Positions 11,340 through 64,000 of a DNA stretch of 64,000 bases are shown here, one piece after another. Below the pieces are notes generated by a model. It was given only the letters and a program-made list of their open reading frames with translations, had not been told where the DNA came from and ran no database searches. This DNA is from an uncultured Pseudomonadota bacterium. GTDB taxonomy: Bacteria > Babelota > Babeliae > Babelales > JAUPTZ01. The stretch is taken from NCBI GenBank assembly GCA_964429275.1, contig CAYSBJ010000002.1:282459-346458 (forward strand), in the 5' to 3' direction. The translations under genes were made by a program, and so were the position numbers. How positions within the stretch are numbered: position 1 is the stretch's first letter; every line of letters starts with the position of its first letter.

Positions 11340-11348
11340 ACACAATTC

Positions 11349-12419: not shown

Positions 12420-12454
12420 ACAAGCCTCGGGCTGTATTGTGGAGTTAATAAAAT

Positions 12455-12483
12455 ACTAAAAACCAGCCACTGTTACAGGCTGG
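12455..12483 (-). terminator. intrinsic-terminator-like hairpin in the leader of the PF04392-like operon (attenuator, or end of a small RNA)
   Basis: Minus strand reads CCAGCC-UGUAACAGU-GGCUGG followed by UUUUUAGUAUUUUAUU. It lies 36-64 nt upstream of the start codon at 12419. Confidence 0.45.
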
Positions 12484-12827
12484 CATTGGCTATTCAATCA
12501 CAAAAAGAGCTCGAGTGCAAATTTGAAACGAGCAAAAACCATTATTTCACCGAAAGTTTTTAGCAAGTTGGCTCAACGTGAAACAACCTTGCCAACGAAT
12601 AACACGTGCCGCAGCCAAAATCGATAAAAAAGACTGGCCGTCATAAGCCCTCCTTCATAACACCGTCGCACCAGCGGCGCCAAGGCTGACTGCACAGGGG
12701 AAGTTATTCTCCCTCGCACTGCGGACCCCCATCTAACCTGCGAAAAGCCACTCATACACGCATTCTCTATACAAATGCTATGCAAGGTAACTAGGGTAGT
12801 TTTAGTACTTTAGCCAAAAGGAATTGT

Positions 12828-17181: not shown

Positions 17182-17277
17182 GCCCTCAGGATACCAGATC
17201 TCTTAATTATTGCCACTGGGCCGCCGACCCGCATCTAAACGCATTGAGACACATCTAATAGAGCTTTACAGTCTACA

Positions 17278-17493
17278 TGGATTGCTTCCAACTACGCCTT
17301 GCTCGTTGTCGCAATGACGCGCTTTTAGGCGCGTCTGTAGGCAAAGCTACTTCTGGTACTCTTTTTCTATTGACGGCGCTTAGCCGTCTTTGCGAGGAAC
17401 GGAGTGACGCGGCAATCCATCTTGATGTGCTTGTCTTTATCCTGGATTGCTCCGCCGTCGCACCTTCTCACAATGACGCGTAATCATGCGTCT
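17278..17493. repeat. three copies of a short REP/MITE-like element in +,-,+ orientation
   Basis: Each copy starts TGGATTGC and ends TC(G/A)CAA(T/A)GACG(C/G) followed by a small hairpin: GACGCGC/GCGCGTC at 17316-17335, GACGGC/GCCGTC at 17372-17388, and GACGC/GCGTC at 17476-17493. Copies lie at about 17278-17335 (+), 17372-17419 (-) and 17443-17493 (+). Confidence 0.6.
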
Positions 17494-17640
17494 ATAATCA
17501 CTGCATCCTACAAAGGCCGCTCTGCACAACTCTTTTTACCAATTACTGAGCCGTCCATAGACTAGTTAAACCAATATCTCATATTATAAGATATTCTTAT
17601 TCATGCATTACAACTCTTTATTAGCAAGGAAAGGCACGCG

Positions 17641-19275: not shown

Positions 19276-19426
19276 TACCCCCGCAACTGTTGAAATAAAA
19301 AAAGCCATTCTACCGGGCTCTGCCCCCCCGCGTTCGGCTCATCCATGGACTATTTAAACGTATCATCTATACTATAAGGCATTATTGCTCGCAATTTAAC
19401 TACTTAGTTACCCACGAAAGGCGCAG

Positions 19427-22400
19427 ATGTTGTATCTTCTTTCCCTTCTTTTTACTTTCTCTCTAATTGTCAGCCCGGTACTGGGTATGGATGAAGGGGC
19501 GTCGACTGTGAGCAGTGCAGAACTTCCTGCGACTACTGGCGATGTTGTAGAGCCGAATGAAAAGAACGAAGCTATCAAAACAACTGAAGAAATAGGCGCT
19601 CCCGAGGAAGAAGCTGCTGATCTTGCATCAGCTGCTACTTCCAACCCTACAGATGAACCTGCGGTACCAGCCCATAACACAGCAGCAACCGCCCCGATGA
19701 GAGATGCTGCCAATGCAGTTGAAAAAAAGCATGCAATCCCAGCGAAACAAAGAGACTTGGCAGCCTTGCATGCTCAGTACAACCGAAATGTCAACGCGTT
19801 TTTAGAAAAGCATGTTATTTCAAAACTCAATGGTGAGAAAAAACACATGCCCCTGATATTACCTCCCTACATAGATGAATTTAAGCATGAAGCCAATGAA
19901 ATTAATGCTAAAAATGCTAAAGATGCTAAAGATGCTGACAGAGTCTTTGAAATACACGGCGCTATCCGCAAAATCATGCGATTCTTTCACGCACAGGGGG
20001 ACAAGGATTTTACTCCTGAAGAACTCAGGACATACTACACAAAGAACAACGATGTCGCTAAGGAATGGACCAAAGAAGACGCGAATGCATTTCGTAAGAT
20101 TATTCAGATGCTATTGGACCACGAAAAAGTACTTCTGCCTAAGATGCTTGAGCTCTTTATCCAGAATAAATTTGAACGCTATAAAGTTGCACTGACTCCA
20201 AAGGAAATACTCGCGTCGGCTATAGCGAACTTAAGCGGCCAACAAAAATTTCTGGCTAGGTACTGCCAATTGTGGACAAAATTAGCCAACACCTCCGATT
20301 TCGTTCGCGCAATTGCGCCCTCAACAACAAGTGTACAAGAGGTCGCCAACATCCTCATACCGCCGCTGAAAGAAATCCTTGGATCTCCGTATCCAACTCT
20401 TGATGCCATACAAAAAACAGAGGCTGAAGTGAAGGCTTTCGTCACTCAGTTATCGAAGAGGAAAGAAGCAGCCGCTCAAGCTCAGCAACAGGCAATGTCA
20501 GCAATACGAAAAACTCTCGCAGAAGAAACAAAATCTATGGGAACTGTCACTCAGCAACAACTAAAAGGAATAATGGAACGCGCGATACTCGAGGCCGACA
20601 ACGAGACAGAACGGAAACTCCTGTATAAAATGTGGCAACCATTAGATGAAACCAGCAACGAAATCGCAGATTACAAAGCCAGTCTCAATACCCTCCACCT
20701 GCTCACGGTGTATGAATACGAAGGCCACCCTCCCCTCGCCGGCTATACAGAAAAAATACAATCTCTTACAGACGCTGCTGCACGCAGACAAGAAGATTTG
20801 CTTCGGGCCAGAGAAGAATCATTAAATAAAGCGGCTGATGAAATCATTGCCGAGTTTGCCGATGCACATCCTGACCTCTCAGCCCAAGAGCGATTAGAAG
20901 AAGGGCTGGTAAGCGTGACAACGAAAAGTAGCGACCCTAATTACCTCTTGCAAAAGAATGAACGCACTATGGCCGCCCGTAAGTATATCCACATGCTCCA
21001 AAATCAAATGGAAAAGCTTGCTACGACCCCATTCATTCCGCTCGGTAATTTGTATAATCAACTAACCAACAGCTTTTTTCTAACAAAAGAAGACCAAGTA
21101 TTCATCGATCAAGTGACTACACAAGTCACAAAACGACAAGAAGAAATGAAGAAGCTTGATGAATTTAACAGGCGTTCGAACGATAGGCTTTCCTCGTTTG
21201 TCGGAGAAAATGAAATAGACCCACAAAGCTACGGCGCGGCGGTGGAGTACTACATACAAAAGTATCTAGATGAAAACACGACCAATGCAGAAGATGTAGC
21301 CGTCATGTTTAAGCTTTTGGAGATTCAAGCAAAACTAAAACAAGATGATTACCAAGGATCAATGGATCCTAATGAAATAGCCGAGAGAATTTCTGGTGAT
21401 GCGCTAGCAATTATTATTTCTCCGGAGGAGGCAGGTGAATTCAGGCGTCGGTACCTGGCTAACTTTTCTACTAAATTCCGTGAATTCCTCACCAATAAAG
21501 CAACAGGGAAATTCTATTCCACAACGGACATAAATGAGAGCCACGACGAACAAATTCTCAAGGTGTTGAAAAAACAAGTAACTGCTCCAGCCTTACCAAT
21601 TGCCCCTAGAACAGCAACATCACTTGATGACACAGACGACAGTAAAGGCACTCCGCCAGTATCACACAAGTCGCCGTCGCCGAAACTCGCCGATAAACAA
21701 ATTTCCAGGACCCCTTCACCGAAAACAGCAGTTCAAAGGCCAACGTCACCGGAAAAAGGACCCCGTAGCCTTCTGAGTAACGCCTATCTCAGCACAGCAA
21801 CATCACTTGATGACACAGACGACAGTGAAGACAATGCGTCAGCATTACACAGGTCGCCGTCGCCAAAACCCGCCAATAAACAGATTTCCAGGACCCCTTC
21901 GCCGCTGATGCCACAGCAATCAAATCGGCATCAAAGCCCCCATCGACGATCGCCAACTCCACAACCAAATACGGCAGATATGTCTGATCAATCACCACTG
22001 ATTGATTCGGACATAGACGCACCAGCGCTAGATATACCAGCACCACTTAGAACAACAACTCCAAGGCCAGCATCGCCGGAAAAAACAATTAATACACCAA
22101 AGCATATCTCACCGCCATTGGCACAATCGCCTAAACCAACCGACGATGAAATGTTGCCAGACATAGATACTGATGCTGATATCAGCTCGACCGCGCCGCA
22201 AGCAAGCCTTCTGGGTAACAGCGGTCAGGGTAGCACGCCACCACTCGCAGGAGCTCCGGCAGCACCCGCAAAACCAAAGAATAAATCCGTCTTGCCGCTT
22301 GCTGCCTTTGGCGGAACTACCGCCGCATCAGCTATCGGATTCCTGCATTTACAACGCCAAGACCGCAAGATAACGGCGTTCTTGAATAGCATCGTCAATG

Positions 22401-22645
22401 CATCAGGTCAAACGCTCGGGCAACGTATTGCACAAGCTGAGGCGCAATCGAACGGCATACAAGAAAAAGAGATGCGTACGATCATGAATAGCTTTAATCT
22501 TTCACCAAAACAAACAATCGCCGTTACAGCGGCTCTGGAAAAGCAAAAAAGCATTCGAACCAAGCGGAGCGGCATGGTTATACCGCTGGTTGTTGGCCTT
22601 CTCGGCTCACTCGTGACCGGGCATGAGTATTTTAAGAAAGACTAA
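19427..22645 (+). CDS. secreted/membrane protein, family A member 2 (1072 aa) with S/T-P-rich repeat region
   Basis: Signal-peptide-like SLIVSPVLGMDE. Shares LLYKMWQPLDE...AGYTEKIQSL with member 1 (LILYKMSQLLDE...PGYIEKMQSL). C-terminal module at 22283..22645. Confidence 0.8.
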   Translation: MLYLLSLLFTFSLIVSPVLGMDEGASTVSSAELPATTGDVVEPNEKNEAIKTTEEIGAPEEEAADLASAATSNPTDEPAVPAHNTAATAPMRDAANAVEKKHAIPAKQRDLAALHAQYNRNVNAFLEKHVISKLNGEKKHMPLILPPYIDEFKHEANEINAKNAKDAKDADRVFEIHGAIRKIMRFFHAQGDKDFTPEELRTYYTKNNDVAKEWTKEDANAFRKIIQMLLDHEKVLLPKMLELFIQNKFERYKVALTPKEILASAIANLSGQQKFLARYCQLWTKLANTSDFVRAIAPSTTSVQEVANILIPPLKEILGSPYPTLDAIQKTEAEVKAFVTQLSKRKEAAAQAQQQAMSAIRKTLAEETKSMGTVTQQQLKGIMERAILEADNETERKLLYKMWQPLDETSNEIADYKASLNTLHLLTVYEYEGHPPLAGYTEKIQSLTDAAARRQEDLLRAREESLNKAADEIIAEFADAHPDLSAQERLEEGLVSVTTKSSDPNYLLQKNERTMAARKYIHMLQNQMEKLATTPFIPLGNLYNQLTNSFFLTKEDQVFIDQVTTQVTKRQEEMKKLDEFNRRSNDRLSSFVGENEIDPQSYGAAVEYYIQKYLDENTTNAEDVAVMFKLLEIQAKLKQDDYQGSMDPNEIAERISGDALAIIISPEEAGEFRRRYLANFSTKFREFLTNKATGKFYSTTDINESHDEQILKVLKKQVTAPALPIAPRTATSLDDTDDSKGTPPVSHKSPSPKLADKQISRTPSPKTAVQRPTSPEKGPRSLLSNAYLSTATSLDDTDDSEDNASALHRSPSPKPANKQISRTPSPLMPQQSNRHQSPHRRSPTPQPNTADMSDQSPLIDSDIDAPALDIPAPLRTTTPRPASPEKTINTPKHISPPLAQSPKPTDDEMLPDIDTDADISSTAPQASLLGNSGQGSTPPLAGAPAAPAKPKNKSVLPLAAFGGTTAASAIGFLHLQRQDRKITAFLNSIVNASGQTLGQRIAQAEAQSNGIQEKEMRTIMNSFNLSPKQTIAVTAALEKQKSIRTKRSGMVIPLVVGLLGSLVTGHEYFKKD
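21611..21904 (+). repeat. imperfect 183-nt (61-aa) tandem duplication inside the 1072-aa gene
   Basis: An identical 33-nt core ACAGCAACATCACTTGATGACACAGACGACAGT occurs at 21611 and 21794. ATTTCCAGGACCCCTTC occurs at 21701 and 21884. Both units encode TATSLDDTDDS...SPSPK..NKQISRTPSP. Confidence 0.85.
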
Positions 22646-22676
22646 ATAGTTTTTTATTGTTTAGAGAAGTTTTTAT

Positions 22677-24605
22677 ATGTTACATCCACGGCTACTTCTT
22701 TTATGCCTTCTTACCAGCCCGTTATCAATATTTTCAGCTACAAATCGGGATACTGTTAACACCCAACTAATCTTTTCATCCTCTGCTCCAAACATTTCCA
22801 AGACTGCAGCAGAGGAAGAAGGGGAAAAAAGGGCGCTGGCGATGGTAAAAGAAGTTGTTAAGCAGATTTGCACAGGCAAGCGGATGGAGCAAGCTGCCAT
22901 ATACAGAGAAGTAGTAAGCCAATTAGAGACCATACCGGACGCTTTTGGCACAGAATGTCGGAGGGTTGCAAAATTCTACCTTGAGCCAGAATCAGCCACA
23001 ATACCTAATCAAACAATATATACTTTGAATGATGCGATAGTTCTTGTACAAAGCAAAATAGCTTCCTCAAACAACCACTCAACGGCAATAGCCACAAAGA
23101 TACTAAAAAAAGCGTACGATCAGGAGTATCTATTATCTGCAGATGAGATCTACAAGAAAGTCAATGAGCAGCTACTCGGAAAAATTCTAAGCGGAAGCCA
23201 ACTCAGCACCATCAAGCATGAATGCTTCAATGCAATTAAGCACTGCTTTGAACCCAGAACAGTCTACGCATCAACTCTGTGCAGCAAAGACGATGTATTA
23301 GAGCTTCTGCCTGATACATCACCAGAAGAAAAAATACGGGACGCTATTCAATCGGTGGGTAGAAGAGGTGCGATACAACACGGTCGATTCTACCAGCTTG
23401 TTTATCGCCAAGTGCACCCAGATAAAATAAAGCCTACGCGATTTGCCAATGCATGCTCACAGCTCTTAGCGCGACTTAAAGCACCAACAGGTGAAGAGAG
23501 GGCGATATTGAGCACTAATCAAGCACTCGCACTTGTAAGCACAACAACTATAAGCGAAGAGGATGAACAGCTTAACAATCTCATTAATACTAGCTTTTTA
23601 GCAGTTGTTACTACGAGCCATACTGCAGGCGTAAGGGCAACGCTCAAAGAATGGCTCAGCATCTTAGCTCGAGAATTAGAAGAAGGGCAGCCGCTGGCAA
23701 GTGCAATGGAGAAACAAATTACAGACCTAGAAAGCAAAAAAAGCAGATCACCAGCGAACCTACACACTAGCTTTAACACAGCTATTAAGGAGGCAAAAAA
23801 AGCCCTTTTAGGCATGCGCATAAAGCTTAGAAAAATACTGCCACTGTACCCAGAAGAAGACACTGCAATACTCACTTCATGCGACGATGTGCACGAAGCC
23901 ATAAAGCCTCTTCTCTACGACGCGCGCAGCACTCTTTATACCAAAGATCTTGCTCAATCCGTCCAACCCTTATCTAGGGAAGAGAAGGCACAAATCTTCG
24001 CTTACTTAGTAAACAAAGAATTGCGAGATGTTACTAAAATGCTTAAAGAGCAACCAGCTTATGCAAGAAAAAAGTTCATGGAAAATGTATATCCAACCCT
24101 CAATGCTATAGCCAGAAAGGATCCGCAACAGGTAGAATATATAAACCTGGTCGTTGAGCGAATTAAAGCAGCAGAAAAATCAGGCGAATTGCAAGCACTA
24201 TTGAACGACTCACCAGCAACCACACTAAACGAGTCGACACGTTCAATAACCACTACGAATAAATTAAAATTTCCGTTTGGGGCAATCAACCTAATCTCTA
24301 CAGTATACTTGGGGCATTTAACACTTAAGGAGCGCAAACTTGCTTCATTTATTCAGGGCATTCCGCTCAATAAAAATGGCCAATCTATTTCAGAACGATT
24401 AACTACTTTAACCAAGCAAGATGGATCCATAGAAGCAAGTTCTATACGAAAGATTCGAGAAGAATTCGGTTTTTCATCAAAAGAAATGCACAACGTCAGG
24501 CGAGCTATCAAAACAAAAGAGACTATTGCCACCAGAAAAAAAGCGGCCCTCATTGCACTGACAATAGGACTTATTGGCGTTTTTGCGGTTAAAAGACGTC
24601 AATAA
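22677..24605 (+). CDS. secreted/membrane protein, family A member 3 (642 aa)
   Basis: Signal-peptide-like LLLLCLLTSPLSIFSA. The C-terminal module (24261..24605) aligns with members 1 and 2: hydrophobic helix, (K/Q)ER(K)(L/I), about 80 aa, then a terminal helix (I/L)GL(I/L)G. Confidence 0.75.
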   Translation: MLHPRLLLLCLLTSPLSIFSATNRDTVNTQLIFSSSAPNISKTAAEEEGEKRALAMVKEVVKQICTGKRMEQAAIYREVVSQLETIPDAFGTECRRVAKFYLEPESATIPNQTIYTLNDAIVLVQSKIASSNNHSTAIATKILKKAYDQEYLLSADEIYKKVNEQLLGKILSGSQLSTIKHECFNAIKHCFEPRTVYASTLCSKDDVLELLPDTSPEEKIRDAIQSVGRRGAIQHGRFYQLVYRQVHPDKIKPTRFANACSQLLARLKAPTGEERAILSTNQALALVSTTTISEEDEQLNNLINTSFLAVVTTSHTAGVRATLKEWLSILARELEEGQPLASAMEKQITDLESKKSRSPANLHTSFNTAIKEAKKALLGMRIKLRKILPLYPEEDTAILTSCDDVHEAIKPLLYDARSTLYTKDLAQSVQPLSREEKAQIFAYLVNKELRDVTKMLKEQPAYARKKFMENVYPTLNAIARKDPQQVEYINLVVERIKAAEKSGELQALLNDSPATTLNESTRSITTTNKLKFPFGAINLISTVYLGHLTLKERKLASFIQGIPLNKNGQSISERLTTLTKQDGSIEASSIRKIREEFGFSSKEMHNVRRAIKTKETIATRKKAALIALTIGLIGVFAVKRRQ

Positions 24606-52497: not shown

Positions 52498-53814
52498 TTG
52501 AGCAAAAAAACCTTTGTTCCCGCGTTTACCCCACGCTCCCTTAAATACAGCATCGACAAAAAATCGTCGCACTTGTGGTATCTTACTGTGGAAATCCCTG
52601 GTGCCATGACGGCCCACATTAAAGATCACATAACGCGACTCTATCGCCAGTACACACTTATGCCGGGCATTTCCTGCAACAGCCTTCCAATAACCTATAC
52701 GCAACACTATTTTGCCCAAGAAATTGAAAAAGAATCACGACAATTCCTGTACGAACACTTTATCGAAGGCAGCATTCAAAGTTTTTTGCAAGACAATAAA
52801 ATAACGACCGTAAACTGGCCACGCATCAAAGATGTTGGCGGTAGCGCACAAAATGGTTATACCATAACCATCGCCCTCTCACTGGCCCCGCAGCTTCAAC
52901 TTCACAATTGGCAGACACAAACTTTTGTTGCGCCTAAACGAAAAAACTACACCGACCTCGACATCCAGGTTGAATCCTTTATTGCCACCCTAGAGGCAGA
53001 ATCATCCTCGACGCGCACCGCGACTGTTGAACTTGGCGACTGGGTTCGCTTTTCAGCGCAATTTCGCTCACCTCTAGTGCAAACACCCGTCCACAGTCAC
53101 ACACAATATTGGCTCCGTATCACCAATCCGATACTTACTTCGCCGGCAATGCAGCAATTTTTAACTGCGAAAGTAGGAAGTTCATTTACCATACCAGCAA
53201 GCGCACTCTCTATACACCAAGAAAATCCTTTTTCTACCGACTATTATTTCGATGTTACCGTTGAACATATTGTCAAAACACAAAAACTTTCGGTACAGCA
53301 GGTACAAGACTGCCTACACGTAAGCGACCATCAAATGCTGCACAACAAGTTAATAGAGATTTTTTCCTATCGCAACGATGTTTCATTACGTAAGGCGATC
53401 ATTGAAGAATTGTTCTATGCACTCTTCAATGCCTTCCGCTTTGAGATTGCGCCACACGCGATCACACGACGAAAAGAACTACTGCTTTTTTTGATGCATC
53501 AAACACCTGACAACTCCGTCTATACAAAACAAAAGCACTTTGCAACGCACATAACACTGCTCGCAGAAACAAAATTAAAAGAAGAAGCGCTCATAGACGC
53601 GATTGCACAGCTCGAAAACATTACGGTCACGCCAGAAGACATCACTCACTATCTCTCTCTGGCGTCAAACGAACGGCTAAAAGAATTCTTATACTTCTCT
53701 CCGTTGACCGAAGACGCTATCTCTTCTGACCAACCCTGTGGTGAATATATTCTAAACCAGACAGTTCGTCGGGAGAAAACACTGAATGCGATTATCCAGC
53801 AAATTGCCATCTAA
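52498..53814 (+). CDS. trigger-factor-like protein, divergent paralogue 1 (438 aa)
   Basis: TTG start with AGGAGG 5 nt upstream. Collinear with the trigger-factor architecture: N-domain with the signature position reading MPGISCNSLP instead of GFRKGKVP; APQLQL / PKRKNYTDLDIQVESFI linker; a PPIase-sized middle region; helical C-domain. Confidence 0.6.
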   Translation: MSKKTFVPAFTPRSLKYSIDKKSSHLWYLTVEIPGAMTAHIKDHITRLYRQYTLMPGISCNSLPITYTQHYFAQEIEKESRQFLYEHFIEGSIQSFLQDNKITTVNWPRIKDVGGSAQNGYTITIALSLAPQLQLHNWQTQTFVAPKRKNYTDLDIQVESFIATLEAESSSTRTATVELGDWVRFSAQFRSPLVQTPVHSHTQYWLRITNPILTSPAMQQFLTAKVGSSFTIPASALSIHQENPFSTDYYFDVTVEHIVKTQKLSVQQVQDCLHVSDHQMLHNKLIEIFSYRNDVSLRKAIIEELFYALFNAFRFEIAPHAITRRKELLLFLMHQTPDNSVYTKQKHFATHITLLAETKLKEEALIDAIAQLENITVTPEDITHYLSLASNERLKEFLYFSPLTEDAISSDQPCGEYILNQTVRREKTLNAIIQQIAI

Positions 53815-53853: not shown

Positions 53854-55248
53854 TTGACTTTTTTTCCATACAACTCCATATACTTTTCAACACGTAATAA
53901 ACCGGCAATGACGACGCGCATTGTCTTTAAACACCCTGGTACTAGGACGGATGAAAATAATATGGTGACTCCTCATATGCGTTTCTCGTGGGAACATTCG
54001 TCAAGCTGCTTCATTTATGGCGATGTCACCGTTGATCGAGCAATTGTACAACCAATGACCACCCAAATGGCACAGCTTTACCAACACTACGCTGCATTGC
54101 CAGGTTATGAAAAAAAACATCTCCCCATCGAATATGCAAAAGCGTATTTTGCTGCGGAGATCAAGCAAGACACACAAGAATTTTTATACAAACATTTTGT
54201 ACTCCAATTTTTGCTCGACGAAATTACACGAAATCATCTAGTGACTGCTAATTGGCCACGCCTCTCAGAAGTAAAATCTATTGATGAGGGCCTTACGTAT
54301 CGCTTTATTCTTACTATTGCACCAAACCTAGCGCTCAAAGAATGGAAACATTTTGTCTTTAAACAACCTGAACGTAAAAACTATAAAGATTTGGATAACC
54401 AGGTTATTAATTTCATCAAACAAGCTACCGACACCGCTCGATCGCACGATAAACACACTACGGCAGCGGGGGACTGGGTTTCTTTTTCAGCACAGCTCCT
54501 CAATCCAAATACCGAAGAAGCGCTTTTTGAACAACAGCATCGCTACTGGATTCGCATCTCAGGCGACATCATCATAAGCAAATTACAGCAAAGTTTTGTA
54601 GAGAAAAAAGTAGGCGATGCCTTTATCGTTAACGCACTTCCATTTATTGATGCACCACAAAGCAGCATCGAAGAACCATGCCATTACAAAATAACCATTG
54701 AATCAATTACCAAAGGCGGGCACATGTCGCTTGAATTTTTCAAACAAACGTTCAAGCTAAAAACCCGCGCAGACGTCCACAAGAAGTTAATAGAGGTATT
54801 CTCATATCGTAATGATATCTCGCAGCGCCGCTCAACAATAGAAGAATTATTTCACCTGCTCTTCACGAAACATCGTTTTGAAATGCCAAAGCATATCATC
54901 ACACGAAAAAAGGAAAATCTCCTCAATATTATCAAGCGACAAAGTGACTATAACATTTATAAGAACAACAAGAACTTTGACACCCACCTCACTCTCCTTG
55001 CTGAAAAGATGCTCAAAGAAGAACTCATCATAGACCACATCGCCTACGCTGAAGAAATTAAAGTAAGCTGCGCCGATATCGCGCACTACCTCCATCTTTT
55101 TAATAACGAGCGGCTCAAAGAATTCATCTACTTTAAGCCATTAATCGATAGCGTTGAAGATTCAAATACACCAATTCACGAAGCAATTCTGGCACAAGCC
55201 GTTGCTCGTGAGAAAACACTCAATTACATACTATATACTCTCTCGTAA
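53854..55248 (+). CDS. trigger-factor-like protein, divergent paralogue 2 (464 aa or shorter)
   Basis: Clear paralogue of 52498..53814. Compare EVFSYRNDISQRRSTIEELFHLLF with EIFSYRNDVSLRKAIIEELFYALF, and LTLLAEKMLKEE with ITLLAETKLKEE. Signature position reads LPGYEKKHLP. Start uncertain: TTG 53854, ATG 53905 or ATG 53959. Confidence 0.6.
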   Translation: MTFFPYNSIYFSTRNKPAMTTRIVFKHPGTRTDENNMVTPHMRFSWEHSSSCFIYGDVTVDRAIVQPMTTQMAQLYQHYAALPGYEKKHLPIEYAKAYFAAEIKQDTQEFLYKHFVLQFLLDEITRNHLVTANWPRLSEVKSIDEGLTYRFILTIAPNLALKEWKHFVFKQPERKNYKDLDNQVINFIKQATDTARSHDKHTTAAGDWVSFSAQLLNPNTEEALFEQQHRYWIRISGDIIISKLQQSFVEKKVGDAFIVNALPFIDAPQSSIEEPCHYKITIESITKGGHMSLEFFKQTFKLKTRADVHKKLIEVFSYRNDISQRRSTIEELFHLLFTKHRFEMPKHIITRKKENLLNIIKRQSDYNIYKNNKNFDTHLTLLAEKMLKEELIIDHIAYAEEIKVSCADIAHYLHLFNNERLKEFIYFKPLIDSVEDSNTPIHEAILAQAVAREKTLNYILYTLS

Positions 55249-55337: not shown

Positions 55338-58300
55338 ATGATGTACATAGTAGTAGTATTACTTGGATTACTTGCCTGGAACGCGCCGCTCATCGCCAAA
55401 CAACGCGATCCTGTCGTATTAGCAGCACAGGAAAACTCGCTCCCCGCTAACTCTGTCAAAGCGGATCATCAGCCGGAACATCAAAATTCCGTTCCGGCTA
55501 CCGCTGCGCCAAAGCCATCTCAAACAGAAAATGACGATACTGACATCACCACACTTCTGGATGATAATGACTCTACAGCATCAAATGATGATGATAACAA
55601 TGATGAACTAAAAAGTTTACTTGGCGATACTTCTGCCACCGGTGAAGATTTTGATGACTTGAAAAATCTTCTCGACGACACTCCATCAGATGCTAACAAT
55701 GGTAGCGAGAAAGAGGATGTAAGCGCTGACGATACTGATTATAGTGACAGTAGCGAGGAAGAGGATGAAGATGATAATCCTGGCCCGGGTACTTTCAGTG
55801 CTATTGATGGTGCCGATGTTAATCTTCCCATAATTGGCGGCTTTTCCTTCAATCCCTCACCAGAAGCTATTGCTGACAAGACTGTTTCCCCTGCTGGACA
55901 GACACGCAAAGATGCAATTGATAAGGCAGACAAAAAAAGCTTCAACGTTGGGCTCATTTCCTTCACTAAAGTAACTGGGCACGTAGATAAAAACGGCCGC
56001 CTTGCAATGGAAGGTACTTGTACTCTCAATAACCAAGAAGGCAGTATCTCCGTCATCAAATTTGATGAGAAAACAACGGAACTCCACCTCAAGCTAAGCT
56101 ATTCAAAACCATTTACTTTCGACATTTTGCCGAACACTTCAGTTTCTATTTCGGAGTTTAAACTTGAGCTCACTAACAACGGGCCAACACTCACCGCGAA
56201 TTCTTCTGTCTTTACTCCAAACAATAAAAAAGGGACTCTTCTTACCTTTGGTACAGAAGTCACCGGCAATAGCGGTGCTACAGGCACTATCAAGAATGAA
56301 GTTCCACTTACCACTCTTGTCCCTCAAGCAAAAGGGAACAAAGATGCAGAAACAATCACACTCTCCAACGTCACTATTTCCTTCCTTAACCCACTGGCGC
56401 TTCAACAACAGCTCATGGAATCTGGCGGCATGCCATCCACCACTATTACAGCCAGTGCGGTGCTCTCTCGCATAAAACTTTTTGGTAAAGCACATCTAAG
56501 TGATTCCGATGTTACCATAACAATCAGCGGCCCAAGCATCAGTCTTGACAGCCAAGGAACATCACCTATTCAATTAGACACCAACGTTGCACTAAATAAC
56601 CCAAACATACAGATGAACCTTTCGCAAGGAATGCCGCCTGAAGTCGGTATCGGCGGCACGCTGGCCTGCGATCTTCCGGTAGTCGGAACTATTAATACCC
56701 CGGTGCATGGAAGAAAAGGCATGGGTGAATTCGAATTAACCGGCGCTCTTAATAACAGCTTTGGATGGGGGCCAGTAAAATTTGAAAACCCAAACATAAA
56801 TCTTTCTTCTGCCCCAATGATGGGGATGGGACAGCTGGACCAGGACACAACAGACCACAATTTACTTAACATTTGGCTGAGTTGTCACTTTAAAATGTTT
56901 GGCCTCGATATTATGCCGATTTTACGCTTCTTAAAACCAAGCGGCGGCAATCCAATGGGAGGAGCAATTCCAACTAAATCCGGCAGGATAGTTAGTTTTT
57001 CCGGACAGATCAACGGTGGAAAACCAATTAAACCCCTCTCATACATTCCCGGCCTTAACGAAATCCCTGGGATAAAAGACTTCTTGCTAGAGCAAGCAGA
57101 ACTGGGCGGCGACTCAGCAGCAAAAATGTTCATCGGCGGCACAACAACGCTCTTCGGAATTGCCACAAAAGCGAAAATTTTAATGGGGAGTGCCAAAAGC
57201 ATTCTCGCATCAAGCACAAAAGCGTGGAAAATATCGCACTCAATCCCATCGCTAAAAGGGAGTGTTTTAGACTCTCTCGAATTTGAAACCATTACTTTTG
57301 GCTACACTAAAGCACAGTATTTAGATGCAGAATCTGGCATGATTATGCAGCCAGGTCTAAATATTTTTGGATCAGTAGATACATCTCAAGGGATATTTAA
57401 AGATTTACGGAAGTTCCTTAAAATAATCCCAAAGAAACTCATTGGCGGGGTAACGCTGCACCCAAATCCTCAGCACTGCAAAATACAAGTCGCCATACCA
57501 CTCGACGTAAAAATTTCGAGCCGTGTAAGCCTACACAACATCATGTTCGAAATAAATGGCTCACCAGGCATTGCGCTCATGCTCTCACTAGCCTTCATAA
57601 CAAATAAGAACGAACCACCACTTATTTTTACTGCGCGGGTTGAGTTTAACCCTGGTTTCTTTATAGTCTCAGGCAGTCTCCAGGGAGTATGGAAAAAACC
57701 TTTCGGCATTCCAGGACTTATCCTCAGCGACATGGCCGTAGAACTCTCACTTCCCTATAACTTAATCCCACCGGTAGGTTTTGGCGTGACAGGAGCTATC
57801 CAGATTGGAAGCTTCATAGCACGAGCAGCCGTCAAAATCGGTCCAAAAGATATGTTACTTCTCGCCGAAATAAGCAAGTGGCCGCTCTTCTGCTTGCCTG
57901 ACCTAATGAACATGGTCGGCCTTAAAATTCCAGGCCTAGAATTCATCAATGCAATCGACATCTGCTTACGCGATGTCAAATTTAAATTTGCGCCGAATGG
58001 TGGTCAAATTGGTATGATTTATTTCGACCCTGGCATCAGCGCCTCCGCAAAACTTATTTTAAACATTCCATACATCATAAAAACAAAACTTGAAGCTGCC
58101 TTCAATTTGGACTGGATCGGTGGCTTCAAGATGTACGCAAAAATGTCCGGATTCAACCTCGGCCCCTTAAAAATTACGGGAAAAGGCGAGGATAAAAAAT
58201 TCAATACCAGCGATGACGGAGCTATATTTTGGGCCGAGCTCTCTCTCTCTCACCAAAAAATATACATCTCCGCACTTGTGGAACTTTTTGGTTCATCAGC

Positions 58301-58622
58301 AGAACTTGAAATTGATGTTGGCCTCTTGCATATACGCTTTAAAATGATGATGAAACTTCTTGGATTTCTTAATACACACATTGTCGGAGAAACGTATCAT
58401 AAAGGCTGGCGAGTAGGCTTTCGCGTCATGGGTACCGCAAAAATTGGAAATAAGGCAGAGGCAACTATTTTTGGCGACATCAATACACTAGGATGCTCTT
58501 TTGCAGGAAAATATGATGCGCTAACCCTCCATGATATCGCCGATCTTTGCCATATACCAAGCGATATCATTCCTCAATTCGGAATGACCGACATAGAATT
58601 TTACGTTCGAGCACAAGGATAG
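55338..58622 (+). CDS. giant secreted protein 1 (1094 aa): signal peptide, acidic disordered region, beta-rich body
   Basis: Signal-peptide-like MMYIVVVLLGLLAWNAPLIA. Acidic tract at about 55521-55790. The C-terminal module (about 58098-58400) is homologous to a module in the next gene. Confidence 0.8.
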   Translation: MMYIVVVLLGLLAWNAPLIAKQRDPVVLAAQENSLPANSVKADHQPEHQNSVPATAAPKPSQTENDDTDITTLLDDNDSTASNDDDNNDELKSLLGDTSATGEDFDDLKNLLDDTPSDANNGSEKEDVSADDTDYSDSSEEEDEDDNPGPGTFSAIDGADVNLPIIGGFSFNPSPEAIADKTVSPAGQTRKDAIDKADKKSFNVGLISFTKVTGHVDKNGRLAMEGTCTLNNQEGSISVIKFDEKTTELHLKLSYSKPFTFDILPNTSVSISEFKLELTNNGPTLTANSSVFTPNNKKGTLLTFGTEVTGNSGATGTIKNEVPLTTLVPQAKGNKDAETITLSNVTISFLNPLALQQQLMESGGMPSTTITASAVLSRIKLFGKAHLSDSDVTITISGPSISLDSQGTSPIQLDTNVALNNPNIQMNLSQGMPPEVGIGGTLACDLPVVGTINTPVHGRKGMGEFELTGALNNSFGWGPVKFENPNINLSSAPMMGMGQLDQDTTDHNLLNIWLSCHFKMFGLDIMPILRFLKPSGGNPMGGAIPTKSGRIVSFSGQINGGKPIKPLSYIPGLNEIPGIKDFLLEQAELGGDSAAKMFIGGTTTLFGIATKAKILMGSAKSILASSTKAWKISHSIPSLKGSVLDSLEFETITFGYTKAQYLDAESGMIMQPGLNIFGSVDTSQGIFKDLRKFLKIIPKKLIGGVTLHPNPQHCKIQVAIPLDVKISSRVSLHNIMFEINGSPGIALMLSLAFITNKNEPPLIFTARVEFNPGFFIVSGSLQGVWKKPFGIPGLILSDMAVELSLPYNLIPPVGFGVTGAIQIGSFIARAAVKIGPKDMLLLAEISKWPLFCLPDLMNMVGLKIPGLEFINAIDICLRDVKFKFAPNGGQIGMIYFDPGISASAKLILNIPYIIKTKLEAAFNLDWIGGFKMYAKMSGFNLGPLKITGKGEDKKFNTSDDGAIFWAELSLSHQKIYISALVELFGSSAELEIDVGLLHIRFKMMMKLLGFLNTHIVGETYHKGWRVGFRVMGTAKIGNKAEATIFGDINTLGCSFAGKYDALTLHDIADLCHIPSDIIPQFGMTDIEFYVRAQG

Positions 58623-58626
58623 CCAC

Positions 58627-61600
58627 ATGTACATAATAACTGGGTACTTTGCATGCCTTCTGGCCTCACTCATTATCAACCCCCTCGTCGCGGCCACAAA
58701 CATATCATCAATAACAAGTACTGTGCGCCCAGAAGGATCTGTTCCAAAGGCTGCGCCCCTTCCACCCACAGACCCAACTCCAATTACTATAATTACCGCA
58801 AATGCCCCAACTGATACGACACCACCGCCACAAAAAGCTCCGATTCCAGCAACGGACGTAGATGCTATCGACCCAGATCAGGATGACAGCACGCCACCAG
58901 CTGGAGAAACAGCAGACATGGTAGTTGCTGACGATACAAAGTCTGAGGAAAAATCGGTCTCACTTCTCGCAACTGCAAGCGCCGATAACGCCGCCGGCCT
59001 GGACGTTGTTGATCCTAATGATGCCATTGTTGCTGCTACGCCATTAGCAATTCCCGCACCAGACACAAGCACAGCTTTTATAACACCTGAAGCAAGCGCC
59101 GCTGCTATTGCTGCTGGAAAAAAAAATAAAGCCGCCATTATTGCCGCAGAAGAAAAAAAAGAAGCAGATAAAACAACCAGCGTAAGCAAGGCAAATGACC
59201 TTTTTGCCTACAACTTAACAGGAATGAAAGAAGCTGGTGTTGATATTTCAAAAAATGGCTTTGGCATGACTGCACGCTTCGACCTTGGATGGGGAGCGTA
59301 CATGCGTGCAACCTTCGCAGTAAATACCGACGGACTTCTCCTGCAGGCGTACATAAAGGAAATCAATCTTGCAAACATATTAAAAGTGACCGGCACTGGC
59401 CCTGACGGTAAATATGGCACTCCGGACGACGGAGTGTTAGTAGAAATACGCCTGGACAAAAAAATACAACGCGTTGCCCTCAGCGGATTAATTGATCTTT
59501 TTGGCGCAATGAGTGAAACCGAAATTATTATTGCTTCTGACAAAATAAAATTCATGGCGTACACCAATCTCTTTGGTATGTTTTCTACTACCCTCCTCGC
59601 TCAATTCACTTTTTCAGATTTTGAATTTTTTATAGAAGGGGCTGTAGAAACAAGACTTATTGCAGAAATAGAAAAAAGAGCAAAAGAAGCTATTACCAAA
59701 GTAGGCGACGCAGTCGTAGCAGTATCAAAAAAAGCTGCACAATCAGTGCAAAAAGCACGAAAAAACCTTGAATATCTCAAAAAAGTCGTAAGGGCTGCCA
59801 ATGCCAAGCTACGTAAAGCACAAGCAACCTATTTCTCAAAATTAAACGCCCCACAAAAAGATATAAATGACGCCGTAAAAGCAGTTGAGGCTGCAGATAG
59901 AGAGGTTGGCAGCCAAGTAGGAAAAATACTAGAAGCACGTAGAAAAATGCTCGCCGGAAGAAAAGCAATTGCTGGGGCTATAACCAAAGTTAACTCGTTA
60001 AATGGGCAAGTAAGCCGCGCCATCAAAAAATTAAAGAGTATCGCTCGTGGTATGAAATGGTATGAATTCTGGAAAGTCGCCGAGCTGGCTTATTGGAGTG
60101 CCGCAGTAGCAGCGCTTGAAACAGCACGGGGTATCGCTATTGGCGCCCTGGAAATCGCAAAGGCCTCTATCACCCCGCTGGCTGGACTCCTTACCGCAAC
60201 ATATGCAGTATCATATGCTGCAAGCAAAGCTGCACTTGAAATAGCCTACCTTAACTTAGAGGCAGCACTCATCGCCGCAAACCCATTAACCATGAAAGAA
60301 TTAGGCGAAGTATTAGCCGCCAGCCTAGAAATTAGCGGCGCCTCCATGGCATACTACGCTGCCCAAGGGGTATTGATTACAACCTGGGCAGCCTTTAAAG
60401 GAATAGAAGAAGTTACCAAAGGAATAACAATTGCCATGAGAGAGGTCGTTTCCGCGGCTTTTGAAATATTTAGAATTGATGGCGCAGCATTTAAAGCCTC
60501 CGTTAAAAACGTAGTGCAAGGATCACTTGATCTCTATCTCCTCGTCTACATTTTCACGGTAAAGAAAAACCTCAAGCTTACCCTTGATATGAGCAAGCCA
60601 GATAAAACATTTGCAAGTATTGGCAACATGATCGCTGATATTTTTAACCCATTATCACATGGCTCAAGTGATGACATTTTTGCTAAAGTCCAACAAGACC
60701 GTAAAAACTTCATGGCTGGCATCACCGCAGCAGGGCCTAGTCTACAAGACCGAATCCAGCAAAATCGCGCAAGTTTCGCTGGTGACCTCACAAGCTTGGA
60801 TGAAAAAAGCAAAGCTGCAGCAATCGAACAAGAAAAAGTCAAAAAACAACAAGAAGCCCGCGAAGCCGCCTTAAAAAAGATACAAGATGATAACGCACAA
60901 CGTCTTGCTACTATGCGCCAAAAATACCCATTTACTGAATCTGACATCAAAAATATGGGCTCACTTGATTTCCTTTCCTCTACAGAATCTGCAACCATCG
61001 TTGACGAAAAAAATCCAGTTTCCTGCTCCACAGCACGCATGCAAGGGCTATTCCGATGGTTTGAAGCATGGAAGCTCCCAACACCTAATAGCGGTTGCGT
61101 ATTATTCGACGTAAGCGGCGATCGTGATATTTACATTGGCTTCCATCATGAAATAGATGAAAAAAAGCAAAAACGAAACAAAGACTTCGATATTGTACTC
61201 GGCGCAAAAGAAAATACCGTAAATATTATCCGCGACGCAGAAAGCAGTGTCATTTTTTCTTGTGGTGACCCTGACTCATTAATTATTACCACAAAAGAAG
61301 GAGGATTTCAGCGCTACTGGATCAGCTTTGATAACGGGTATCTTGCAATTGGGCGCGGCGGAAATCCTGGCAAAGAAATGCTTTTTGATTGGCAATTCTC
61401 TGATCTGTCAGACCCTATTAAGTATTTCTCGCTCTCTTCAGGAAGTAACGAGCTTTCATTTGTAAACATCCACACTGCACCTGCATTTAAAGGCACCTTT
61501 GGCTCCCAATACTCTACGTTTGGCGCCTATAATCAATTTAACTGGCCGCTTAAGCTTAGCGCCGAAAACAACAGCACAATAACATTCAAAGCAAAAGCTG

Positions 61601-64000
61601 CTCAAAACATTGCCCTTGGCTTATGTGATAATCCCAGCGTAAAATTTTCCCGCTACCTTGCCGTATTTGGGGCAGAAGGAAATACAACCACAACTATGGC
61701 AACCGGCGCTGCTGATGGAAAAACATATAATTACCTTGCAATAACGGAAGACGCCTCCGCCTTACTCCCAACAGATAACCAAACAACCTACTATCCCTAT
61801 TGGGCAACATTCAACAATGGCCACTTCGTCATCGGTTCTGGATCAATCCCATCACAAAACATTATTAGCGAAATAAATATCAATCCAGCAACATTATCAG
61901 CATCAGCCATCGTACCATTAACGGCACCACCAGCAGATGTAGCAACCGCGGCTCCGGTGACCACGCCGGCAACACCTACTTCTCCCGCCACCTCGCCAAC
62001 ACCGGCTGTATCCGCAATTACACCACCAGAACCAACCACTTCTCCATCAAGCAGCACAACAAGTAGTCAAGCCTCAGCCCCTGCAGCCGCAACAAGCGGT
62101 GGCGGATCTGGCATGAAGTATTTTTCCTTCAGTAGCTGGGACGATTCAGTAGAAATCAGAGATATTGTCGTACAACCAGCAGTGCCGTGCCCAATAGGAA
62201 CCCTTTATAGCGCAGTAAATCGAAAATTTTCCTGCACTTGGAATGATGCATGGAAATTCAAAACACCGGGCAAAGGAATTATCACATGGGAAGGAAAAGG
62301 CTCCTGCGACATGGGCTTAGCACTGCACACAAATGGAACTTCAACCGACAATTCTTATACCTACCTTTGCACCATCGGCGCACAAAAAAACACTCATACC
62401 ACCCTTTCTGACAGTACAAAAAAAGCACTTGCAGATAACACCGACATAGATTCCACCATAGCCGCTAAAGATAGCTATACTCCATACTGGTTTTCTTACG
62501 ATGACGATGGCTACTGCATGCTCGGTACGGGAAAAGTTCCTGGACAAAACGTGATTCTTGAAACAGCCACACCAAAGCAACCAATCACCCATTTCTGCTT
62601 TACCAATGGCACCGATCACGTCGAATTCAACAAAATTGCAACGCAAGATATCACGACACCACTACGACGTGGAACCCAATACACCGCCGCACCACAAACA
62701 CCCCTCAACTGGAATGAGGCGTGGAAGATAGCAAATGCAAACACATCTCTCATTCTTCTAGCAGCAAAAGCACAAAGCGGCCTAAGTATCGGGCTCAAAG
62801 ATGATAAGGGCACCGTTTATACCGTCACCATCGATGGCGCAACCAGCAGCATTACAGACGCAAAAAACACCCCGCTCTCTACTACTACAGCAGAAAAAAG
62901 TTATATAAATGATCCTTATAATTTCTACGCATACTGGGTACTGTATTCTCGTGCAACCGGCACGCTTTCGTATGGCTGTGGCGAGGTAACGCCCAAGAAC
63001 AGTATTGCGAAAGTCATATTATCTGAAAAACCGACATTTACTTCCTTTGGTATTGGAAACCCAACCAAAGATCCTGTATATTGCAAAAAAATAGCCTCAC
63101 TTGAGCAAGAAGATCCGAGTGTGAAATCAAACTATGGATCAATACTGCTCAATGAGTCATACGCAGCCACAAACACGCAAAAAACACCGGCCTACCTCTG
63201 GCAAGACGCATGGAAATTAGTAACTACAGAGGCCGGCGCCATCACCTACCGAGCACGAACCACAGGATCCATTGCATTCGGCCTAGGCAACTCAAAAGAT
63301 GGTGCGCTCTATGACATCTACATCAATGGCAAAGAAGTCAGCATTCGCAAAGGAAAAACGATTGTTGCGCGAAGCATTGATAAAAAAATAGTTCTTCCAG
63401 ATGCACATAACTTCTATGGCTATTGGATAAGCTACTACAAGGGCCACATTCGGATCGGCAGCGGCACTGATCCGCGAGAAAATACAATGGTCGAATGGGT
63501 TGATAGTAGTCCAGCAGCTAACATTACGCACTTCTCTCCTTCAAGCATTGACGGCTTTGTTAGTTACAAAGCCATAACTTCCCTTCCCGCCGCCGCAACA
63601 CCGATGTATCAAGTGTACAGCGCCTGCCAAGAAAAAACCGCTTTTAATTGGTACGCACCATGGGAGCTCACTAAACCAGAACAAGGACTCATAACCTTTG
63701 AACTAAAGACCGACAGTGAAGCAGTAATTGGTCTCACCGGGACAAAATCGGACCCTACGTATACTATACGCCTTGGTAAAAACTGCGTAGTCACTAAAGG
63801 CGGCGCAACGCTCGCTACCAGCGCACAAAAAACACCAGTCGTAACCGGCAATACATTTCAACCATTCTGGATTCTTTTTGATAAAAGTTACCTTGCCATC
63901 GGTACAGGTCTAACGCAAAACAACGAATCCCTAATTATTGATTACCAAGACGTGCCAACAGTCGACATCATACAACGATTCTCATTAAGCAGCAGCAGCG
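58627..64000 (+). CDS. giant secreted repeat protein 2, runs off the right window edge (at least 1791 codons)
   Basis: Absent from the ORF track because there is no stop in the window. I checked all in-frame triplets from 58627 to 64000 and found no stop. ATG at 58627 is the first start after in-frame stops at 58585 and 58594, and lies 4 nt after the upstream stop. Signal-peptide-like MYIITGYFACLLASLIINPLVAA. Confidence 0.85.
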   Translation, partial: MYIITGYFACLLASLIINPLVAATNISSITSTVRPEGSVPKAAPLPPTDPTPITIITANAPTDTTPPPQKAPIPATDVDAIDPDQDDSTPPAGETADMVVADDTKSEEKSVSLLATASADNAAGLDVVDPNDAIVAATPLAIPAPDTSTAFITPEASAAAIAAGKKNKAAIIAAEEKKEADKTTSVSKANDLFAYNLTGMKEAGVDISKNGFGMTARFDLGWGAYMRATFAVNTDGLLLQAYIKEINLANILKVTGTGPDGKYGTPDDGVLVEIRLDKKIQRVALSGLIDLFGAMSETEIIIASDKIKFMAYTNLFGMFSTTLLAQFTFSDFEFFIEGAVETRLIAEIEKRAKEAITKVGDAVVAVSKKAAQSVQKARKNLEYLKKVVRAANAKLRKAQATYFSKLNAPQKDINDAVKAVEAADREVGSQVGKILEARRKMLAGRKAIAGAITKVNSLNGQVSRAIKKLKSIARGMKWYEFWKVAELAYWSAAVAALETARGIAIGALEIAKASITPLAGLLTATYAVSYAASKAALEIAYLNLEAALIAANPLTMKELGEVLAASLEISGASMAYYAAQGVLITTWAAFKGIEEVTKGITIAMREVVSAAFEIFRIDGAAFKASVKNVVQGSLDLYLLVYIFTVKKNLKLTLDMSKPDKTFASIGNMIADIFNPLSHGSSDDIFAKVQQDRKNFMAGITAAGPSLQDRIQQNRASFAGDLTSLDEKSKAAAIEQEKVKKQQEAREAALKKIQDDNAQRLATMRQKYPFTESDIKNMGSLDFLSSTESATIVDEKNPVSCSTARMQGLFRWFEAWKLPTPNSGCVLFDVSGDRDIYIGFHHEIDEKKQKRNKDFDIVLGAKENTVNIIRDAESSVIFSCGDPDSLIITTKEGGFQRYWISFDNGYLAIGRGGNPGKEMLFDWQFSDLSDPIKYFSLSSGSNELSFVNIHTAPAFKGTFGSQYSTFGAYNQFNWPLKLSAENNSTITFKAKAAQNIALGLCDNPSVKFSRYLAVFGAEGNTTTTMATGAADGKTYNYLAITEDASALLPTDNQTTYYPYWATFNNGHFVIGSGSIPSQNIISEININPATLSASAIVPLTAPPADVATAAPVTTPATPTSPATSPTPAVSAITPPEPTTSPSSSTTSSQASAPAAATSGGGSGMKYFSFSSWDDSVEIRDIVVQPAVPCPIGTLYSAVNRKFSCTWNDAWKFKTPGKGIITWEGKGSCDMGLALHTNGTSTDNSYTYLCTIGAQKNTHTTLSDSTKKALADNTDIDSTIAAKDSYTPYWFSYDDDGYCMLGTGKVPGQNVILETATPKQPITHFCFTNGTDHVEFNKIATQDITTPLRRGTQYTAAPQTPLNWNEAWKIANANTSLILLAAKAQSGLSIGLKDDKGTVYTVTIDGATSSITDAKNTPLSTTTAEKSYINDPYNFYAYWVLYSRATGTLSYGCGEVTPKNSIAKVILSEKPTFTSFGIGNPTKDPVYCKKIASLEQEDPSVKSNYGSILLNESYAATNTQKTPAYLWQDAWKLVTTEAGAITYRARTTGSIAFGLGNSKDGALYDIYINGKEVSIRKGKTIVARSIDKKIVLPDAHNFYGYWISYYKGHIRIGSGTDPRENTMVEWVDSSPAANITHFSPSSIDGFVSYKAITSLPAAATPMYQVYSACQEKTAFNWYAPWELTKPEQGLITFELKTDSEAVIGLTGTKSDPTYTIRLGKNCVVTKGGATLATSAQKTPVVTGNTFQPFWILFDKSYLAIGTGLTQNNESLIIDYQDVPTVDIIQRFSLSSSS
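61015..64000 (+). repeat. at least 6 tandem ~150-165-aa protein repeats (FAMeT / Methyltransf_FA-like) within the giant ORF
   Basis: Recurrent landmarks: F/L-x-W-x-x-x-W-(K/E) at 61057, 61543, 62239, 62710, 63199 and 63649. (Y/F)W-x-x-(F/Y)-x-x-G-x-(L/I/F)-x-(I/L)G-x-G at 61315, 61798, 62485, 62932, 63421 and 63865. (F)S-(L/F/P)-SS near each unit end. Confidence 0.8.

Follow-up and report, generated by a model that had tools for sequence, protein, structure and literature searches.

The domain Methyltransf_FA (Pfam PF12248) is known from the farnesoic acid O-methyltransferase (FAMeT) proteins of arthropods, which contain one to four copies of it, usually followed by DM9/DUF3421, while the crustacean type consists of two PF12248 domains in about 280 amino acids (aa) (PMC10015273). 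Enzymatic activity of FAMeT has never been reliably shown and hormone levels were normal in a Drosophila mutant (PMC10015273). The domain also occurs in the sea-star footprint proteins Sfp1, Sfp3, Sfp4a, Sfp5, Sfp7 and Sfp8 (PMC9382459), in mollusc shell-matrix proteins (PMC8194122) and in thioester proteins of the CPAMD8 type (PMC9363628). Here, we describe a giant, putatively exported bacterial protein carrying PF12248 domains in tandem. Its gene lies at the end of a stretch of 64,000 nucleotides (nt), in the following termed the window, from contig CAYSBJ010000002.1 of assembly GCA_964429275.1, which belongs to the Dependentiae/Babeliales and presumably comes from fresh water. The Dependentiae live in protists as obligate intracellular pathogens, and in C. 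destructans 44% of the coding sequences specify signal peptides (PMC6561590). We have hardly any doubt that the window protein contains a tandem array of PF12248 domains with a concanavalin A (ConA)-like fold. Our literature searches brought up neither a paper on arrays of PF12248 in bacteria nor one on lectins or adhesins of Dependentiae.

The open reading frame (ORF) starts with an ATG at position 58627 on the plus strand and stays open through the last base of the window (58627..64000, 1,791 codons). No long ORF in another frame competes with it, and a total length of about 2,450 aa is predicted for the whole protein, which continues past the window. PF12248 is the only Pfam family found in the window protein (E 1.5e-28, 99.7 bits at a gathering threshold of 24.2 bits) and the match covers model positions 7-136 of 140. 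The resemblance to this family that the original prediction had pointed out is thus real. At E <= 1, neither DM9/DUF3421 (PF11901), which had been considered along with it, nor any Ig-like, cadherin, Big or FN3 domain was matched, so that the common bacterial adhesin repeats named as the competing outcome did not turn up. The array begins at aa 797, that is at nt 61015, just where at least six tandem units had been announced, and comprises six successive units of about 150 aa in the window. A further contig (L010), identical to the window at 100% over 11,688 nt, adds 133 aa to the ORF, comprising the rest of unit 6 and most of unit 7, inside which it ends. Units 8 and 9 would follow in this genome as well, judging from orthologues that all possess nine.

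Units 1 (61015..61491, plus strand as for all features of this gene) and 3 (62197..62661) are canonical. Each passes the PF12248 cutoff singly, with 41.7 and 31.4 bits, respectively, as do units 7-9 of P0001, a full-length orthologue of 2,468 aa and 93% identity (35-48 bits). Unit 1 features the motif LGAKENT. Units 2, 4, 5 and 6 stay below the cutoff when taken alone and are tied to the passing units by reciprocal matches of unit-specific hidden Markov models (HMMs) at 36-62 bits. Unit 2 (61492..62196) reaches 15.6 bits with PF12248, and 54.5 plus 7.7 bits with a profile of the units from which it had been left out. Unit 5 (63127..63606) remains just below the threshold with 22.8 bits, and its HMM yields reciprocal matches of 38-62 bits with most units and lower ones with units 2 and 9. 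No PF12248 match at all was obtained for unit 4 (62662..63126) and for the truncated copy of unit 6 (63607..63999), which the window leaves just past its FSLSS strand. Their membership in the family would follow from homology to other units, since the HMM of unit 4 matches units 3, 5 and 6 at 37-49 bits and that of unit 6 matches units 1 and 5 at 57-60 bits. Units 4, 5 and 6 are degenerate. The hallmark segments I-x-x-G-x-x-x-N-T...I and YW...G-x-G are kept in units 1-3 and 7-9, whereas units 4-6 lack the G-x-x-x-N-T segment, and it is this loss that explains their weak Pfam scores. HMMs built for each unit from the orthologues match the other eight units, nearly all with i-E-values of 1e-4 to 1e-29 apart from a few weaker pairs involving units 2, 4 and 9, and find nothing in the N-terminal 795 aa or in the C-terminal tail. 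Such agreement goes well past what chance would produce. Likewise, in a six-frame scan of the window, a profile from 32 units matched no ORF but the giant one.

The repeat pattern read from the letters of the window largely stood. A (Y/F)W-x-x-(F/Y)...G-x-G landmark is present in all six units (nt 61315, 61798, 62485, 62932, 63421 and 63865), and the middle segments that had been quoted, such as DIVLGAKENTVNIIRD, were located in the units. The proposed repeat length of about 450-490 nt agrees with unit spacings of 444-489 nt and fails between units 2 and 3, which are 687 nt apart because unit 2 holds a Pro/Thr/Ser-rich insertion within the domain. A W-x-x-x-W-K/E landmark is found in units 1, 3, 4, 5 and 6, and in unit 2 in a degenerate form. 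The ending FSLSS, thought to be general, is restricted to units 1 and 6, while units 2-5 close with FSFSS, FCFTN, FGIGN and FSPSS. The disordered insertion of unit 2 comprises about 70 aa (~61888-62106) and is placed after the G-x-G strand and before the FSFSS strand. All orthologues have it at the same position but differ in its sequence and length; it is shorter in the remoter ones, and unit 2 as a whole measures 193-235 aa. The insertion may form a glycosylated or flexible loop. Pairwise identity among the units is only 15-27%, which is why Tandem Repeats Finder detected no repeat in the array at the DNA level.

The structure of unit 1 was predicted with AlphaFold2 (AF2) from the 32-unit alignment and proved to be all-beta with 11 strands (predicted local distance difference test (pLDDT) 92.2, predicted template modelling score (pTM) 0.89), in line with the beta-sandwich that had been expected. 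When this model, on which the fold assignment rests, was compared with the PDB by Foldseek, 222 matches were obtained at E <= 1e-3 with template modelling (TM) scores of 0.45-0.63 and about 10% sequence identity. The top matches (E 3e-5 to 2e-4, probability 1.00) comprise VIP36, ERGIC-53, galectins-3, -8 and -10, CBM66, PL7 alginate lyases and the galectin-like structure 1oq1, and an endo-levanase is also among the proteins matched. In a library of viral structures, phage tail-fibre and receptor-binding proteins, a viral galectin and ConA-like proteins were found. Judged by its model, unit 1 is a jelly-roll beta-sandwich of the concanavalin A-like lectin/glucanase superfamily. A search of PDB sequences with the unit profile returned nothing significant, and we found no solved structure of the domain. 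A methyltransferase can be dismissed on account of the all-beta fold, which is the wrong one, and of the lack of a motif I for binding of S-adenosylmethionine (SAM) in the window protein.

Four relatives were retrieved from a word-indexed protein database. They are 93%, 71%, 44% and 44% identical, have lengths of 2,226-2,468 aa and align with the window protein from end to end (P0001-P0004). An exhaustive HMMER profile search with the units against 1.84 billion representatives extended this set, and in P0001-P0005 and P0007-P0009 alike this N-terminal domain is present, with exactly nine units behind it. An HMM of the N-terminal domain matches P0001-P0005 and P0007-P0010. Identities among the orthologues range from 93% down to about 30%. 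Unit n of one species finds its best match in unit n of the others at 40-80% identity, while paralogous units share 31% at most, and conservation is about equal along all units. As nine units are present throughout the orthologues and each is positionally orthologous, the array is ancient, of fixed length and not a fast-evolving repeat. For the same reasons, namely positional orthologues and at most 31% identity among units, a recent repeat expansion was rejected. After unit 9, the orthologues end with a Pro/Thr/Ala-rich tail that measures about 200 aa and is poorly conserved.

The window protein thus fits into an orthologous family of Dependentiae that has not been described before and is characterized by an N-terminal beta/helical domain with MKWYEFWK and GPDGKYGT motifs, nine positional units and a paralogue of about 1,050-1,094 aa encoded upstream. 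A profile scan of genome contigs with the last 300 aa of the window protein found no relative, while a scan with the family alignment identified five Dependentiae loci. The loci of the relatives reside in metagenome-assembled genomes (MAGs) that are named Candidatus Dependentiae or Candidatus Babeliales, and isolate names suggest surface-water and lake samples. In one of these MAGs (L008, 58% identical), the giant gene is present as two ORFs of 571 and 1,728 aa that are about 225 nt apart (10482-17609), which may reflect a frameshift, a mistake in the assembly or a true split of the gene.

The occurrence of the domain reaches far beyond this family. The exhaustive search yielded 2,115 protein clusters at E <= 1e-3, 180 of them at E <= 1e-30, many of which are bacterial and contain several copies. 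A long array in a bacterial protein had been called unusual, which was an overstatement. Copy numbers were counted for about 160 proteins (the best 150 of the 2,115 plus a few cluster members and orthologues) and vary between one and 17 among these listed matches, three being the commonest number (82 of about 160). Lingula anatina proteins have 13-17 copies, Branchiostoma five and Anneissia four, and a EukProt protein and a MAG labelled Campylobacterota are also among the carriers listed. A protein from a gammaproteobacterial MAG has four copies fused to Kelch/galactose-oxidase domains. A second type of protein in the same phylum is exemplified by MBD3231427.1 from Candidatus Dependentiae with 1,501 aa and three copies. 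Exported bacterial proteins with tandem PF12248 arrays are therefore undescribed in the literature we found, yet not rare in sequence space. What is new here is an architectural variant of a known domain family, a novel N-terminal domain combined with nine fixed units in a bacterial protein.

The N-terminal 795 aa precede the array with several distinct segments. The protein starts with a hydrophobic, signal-peptide-like segment, MYIITGYFACLLASLIINPLVAA (58627..58695), which is the sole one in the giant protein with a Kyte-Doolittle hydropathy above 1.6 over 19 aa (aa 1-19) and suggests export via the Sec pathway. A low-complexity linker rich in Ala, Pro, Thr and Asp follows (aa ~30-189; 58714..59193), recognised by its composition and weakly conserved with 32-51% identity to the orthologues. 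The lineage-specific domain (59257..60588) is conserved in all orthologues. An AF2 model of low confidence (pLDDT 55, pTM 0.28), unreliable as a structure and used for the layout of secondary structure only, shows a beta module (aa 211-340), followed by long Ala-rich helices over about 270 aa (aa 342-614) and then by three more strands (aa 615-654). Long helices in AF2 and a charged, heptad-like sequence predict a coiled-coil stalk immediately before the array (aa 658-785; 60598..60981). No Pfam family, no NCBIfam model above noise and no PDB sequence matched the N-terminal 795 aa. In our interpretation, which leans on the AF2 layout, this part starts with a signal-peptide-like segment and a linker, continues with a novel beta-plus-helical domain and ends with a coiled coil; it can be assigned to no known family.

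The giant gene is preceded by a gene for a protein of 1,094 aa (55338..58622, plus strand) that belongs to no known family either. It starts with two adjacent ATGs at 55338 and 55341, and the public gene call takes the second, resulting in 1,093 aa. The N-terminus of the encoded protein is signal-peptide-like, and the protein contains an acidic region of low complexity and is rich in beta structure. BLASTP revealed a module of about 110 aa common to both proteins (giant protein aa 214-326, upstream protein aa 918-1018; 30% identity, E 1e-11), which corresponds to nt 59266..59604 of the giant gene and bears the motif TG-x-G-x-D-x-K-x-x-T-x-DDG. The stop codon of the upstream gene lies 4 nt before the ATG of the giant ORF, which is preceded by an AAGGA sequence, and because of this arrangement the two genes are probably co-transcribed. 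The two are found side by side, in this order, in L001, L002, L008 and L010. Directly upstream of the pair, two tandem trigger-factor-like paralogues with a mutual identity of 40% are encoded on the plus strand (52498-53814 and 53854-55248). With 54 and 78 bits they stay well below the cutoff of 180 for the tig equivalog. They may represent housekeeping tig genes that have diverged or, alternatively, chaperones dedicated to the giant proteins. The order of two trigger-factor-like genes, the gene for about 1,050-1,094 aa and the giant gene is kept in L001, L008 and L010 and partly in L002/L003.

What is the function of such a protein? The explanation of the whole that we favour, though about as much speaks for it as leaves us in doubt, is an exported protein of about 2,450 aa in Dependentiae/Babeliales that uses nine ConA/galectin-like modules for multivalent binding to the host. 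Its parts would be arranged in the order signal peptide, disordered acidic/Pro-Thr linker, beta-plus-helical domain, coiled-coil stalk, nine PF12248 modules and disordered tail. As a long, multivalent string of lectin-like modules, the protein may be presented by the infectious cell or set free in the host vacuole. The modules could engage glycoconjugates of the protist host or other surface ligands and thereby serve attachment, uptake or interactions with the vacuole. Possibly, the N-terminal domain and the probably co-transcribed upstream paralogue with its common beta module provide anchoring or assembly. For the role of an adhesin or lectin that binds the host, taken by itself, our reservations slightly outweigh our confidence. 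The suggestion of an adhesin or ligand-binding function had already been made from the repeats and is reasonable, as it would fit the lectin-like fold predicted for unit 1. It also draws in part on analogy with secreted adhesive and matrix proteins of animals and with the fusion to galactose-oxidase-like domains. As context, we count two proteins with predicted signal peptides that are also encoded in the window, a leucine-rich-repeat (LRR) protein and a cPLA2-like one.

Several observations weigh against this explanation. The residues conserved across the units (W19, W102, G113, G115 and I152 in the numbering of unit 1) look like the core of the fold, and no binding site shared by the units is evident. 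Neither part of the galectin signature (H-x-N-P-R ... W-G-x-E-x-R) was found when the window protein and P0001 were searched with regular expressions. About 10% identity and TM scores of about 0.5-0.63 to lectins, obtained with a predicted structure, place the unit in the superfamily, and sugar binding is not thereby established. For full-length P0001, no NCBIfam model passed its cutoff and nothing rose above noise. No LPXTG, PEP-CTERM or RTX (GGxGxD) motif was detected, the N-terminal hydrophobic segment being the only secretion or anchoring signal recognised. Given the pLDDT of 55 for the model, anchoring by the N-terminal domain is a guess.

A structural role offers itself as an alternative: the modules could be rigid spacers that build a surface coat or fibre, as a layer or fibril together with the upstream paralogue, and bind no specific ligand. 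The fixed number of units, their even conservation and the lack of a binding-site constellation common to them are in agreement with such a protein, as are the coiled-coil stalk and the conserved gene pair with its common beta module. Genes for lipopolysaccharide biosynthesis are missing in Chromulinavorax, which encodes surface antigens without a known function (PMC6561590), and this speaks for a structural role as well. However, where repeats serve purely as spacers, their copy number can usually change and the units homogenise, whereas here the identity of each position has been kept over deep divergence, suggesting position-specific roles, and the fold is typical of binding modules. We consider a mere coat or fibre protein unlikely.

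A secreted effector or toxin, in which Ala-rich amphipathic helices would insert into host membranes while the lectin-like array provides targeting, as in toxins that combine a lectin with a pore former, has the helical stretch of about 270 aa within the beta module in its favour. Two of ten aligned N-terminal regions weakly match Bacillus HBL (E 0.02), and Dependentiae are known to remodel host organelles (PMC6561590). Yet none of the helical segments attains the hydrophobicity of a transmembrane segment, the matches to HBL and ApoLp-III do not rise above the noise formed by many coiled-coil families, the N-terminal model is unreliable, and no solved toxin was matched by the N-terminal sequence. 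A toxin thus appears rather unlikely to us.

The array could also have been acquired recently by horizontal transfer from a eukaryote, be it host or prey. The abundance of the domain in invertebrates such as Lingula, Branchiostoma and Anneissia and the life of Dependentiae within eukaryotes speak for this, and a possible eukaryotic origin had indeed been put forward in the original prediction. However, the divergence of the nine units predates the splitting of this clade, in which orthologues are as little as about 30% identical, and its depth renders a recent transfer quite improbable. The best match of each unit outside the family is an unnamed metagenomic, ENA or bacterial MAG protein with 26-37% identity and in no case a named animal protein; the domain is present in several bacterial lineages, and the composition of the array is not anomalous when compared with the remaining window sequence. 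Animal domains are no closer to the units than other bacterial domains are, so that eukaryotic ancestry is supported neither way, and an ancient transfer in either direction is conceivable. Finally, units acting as enzymes, either as farnesoic acid methyltransferases, as the Pfam name implies, or as glycan-cleaving enzymes of ConA fold (glucanases or PL7-like lyases), which the PL7 alginate lyases and endo-levanase among the Foldseek matches bring to mind, are the weakest and a very improbable rival in view of the beta-sandwich without a SAM-binding motif, the lack of any acidic or basic residue conserved across units, nine divergent tandem copies that would be atypical of catalytic domains, and a FAMeT activity that was never reliably shown, with normal hormone levels in the Drosophila mutant (PMC10015273).

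Returning to host binding, the idea can be taken one step further. The FAMeT-type domain may be a lectin-like module for host recognition that was expanded in Dependentiae in families with three and nine copies, and the nine-module protein, in which every module has stayed distinct throughout the clade, could act as a combinatorial reader of host glycans that sets host range or entry. We regard this as speculative and unlikely. If true, the animal "farnesoic acid methyltransferase" domain would be a ConA-like binding module common to bacteria and to adhesive and immune proteins of metazoa. The way in which Dependentiae (TM6) recognise protist hosts and gain entry to them is scarcely understood, and the conserved giant protein and its partner gene make a concrete candidate for this step.

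The remainder of the window has the character of a bacterial chromosome with gyrA, sbcC and two tRNA genes. Three consecutive ORFs on the plus strand (17641-24605; 544, 1,072 and 642 aa) specify proteins with signal-peptide-like N-termini that match no Pfam or NCBIfam family and have a C-terminal module of about 100-220 aa in common (BLASTP E 6e-7 to 9e-32), a second cluster of paralogous, putatively exported proteins. A gene at 12828-14738 (plus strand) encodes a hydrophobic N-terminus followed by a lysophospholipase domain of the cPLA2 type (PLA2_B, 71.6 bits) with a weak patatin match, and its product is a candidate effector targeting host membranes. The LRR protein of 868 aa (2577-5183, minus strand; LRR_8 51 bits, LRR_4 49 bits) weakly matches the fibronectin-binding family of Leptospira LIC_11051 and is likely another protein for interaction with the host. 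Throughout the window (1-64000), a negative GC skew (-0.07 to -0.22) goes along with an AT skew that is mostly positive, although both strands carry genes, which points to a strong replication-strand asymmetry in composition with a plus strand rich in C and A.

In comparison with known systems, the window protein resembles the giant repeat adhesins of Gram-negative bacteria (RTX/Bap-type, Big/cadherin and autotransporter proteins) in its very large size, its predicted export, its tandem beta-sandwich modules and a plausible role in attachment. Such adhesins typically possess near-identical repeats in variable number, whereas the array described here is ancient and consists of non-identical repeats in fixed number, and it features neither an RTX motif nor an autotransporter barrel. 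An assignment to the Ig, cadherin, RTX or autotransporter adhesins was rejected for lack of matches. With the members of the ConA-like superfamily such as galectins, VIP36/ERGIC-53 and CBM66, many of which bind carbohydrates, the protein shares the jelly-roll fold according to Foldseek; in contrast to them, it shows about 10% identity, no galectin motifs and no match to PDB structures at the sequence level. MBD3231427.1 is of the same phylum and also has the domain in tandem. The three-copy proteins of Dependentiae differ by having three instead of nine copies and by lacking the N-terminal domain of the nine-unit family, and in MBD3231427.1 a DnaJ-like_C11_C/DUF3395 region is present.

Arthropod FAMeT is similar in that PF12248 is matched over nearly the whole model and the domains are arranged in tandem. 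In contrast, the window protein stands out by nine copies, the absence of DM9, a putative signal peptide, a novel N-terminal part of about 800 aa and its origin from a bacterial genome, and it fits neither of the two FAMeT architectures (PF12248 plus DM9/DUF3421, or two PF12248 in about 280 aa). In the invertebrate secreted proteins, which are rich in Cys, one or two FAMeT domains occur together with EGF, vWF, hyalin, Kazal or macroglobulin domains, whereas a homogeneous array of nine units without those partners is found here. Our finding is an observation on domain architecture, and the domain itself is common in metagenomic sequence space. It adds evidence that the misleadingly named FAMeT domain is a ConA-like binding module, which bears on the adhesives of sea stars, the shell matrix of molluscs and proteins of the CPAMD8 type. 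In these proteins, as in the putatively secreted protein of the window, the domain is a module of a large secreted protein, and there its setting is adhesive, matrix-forming or immune.

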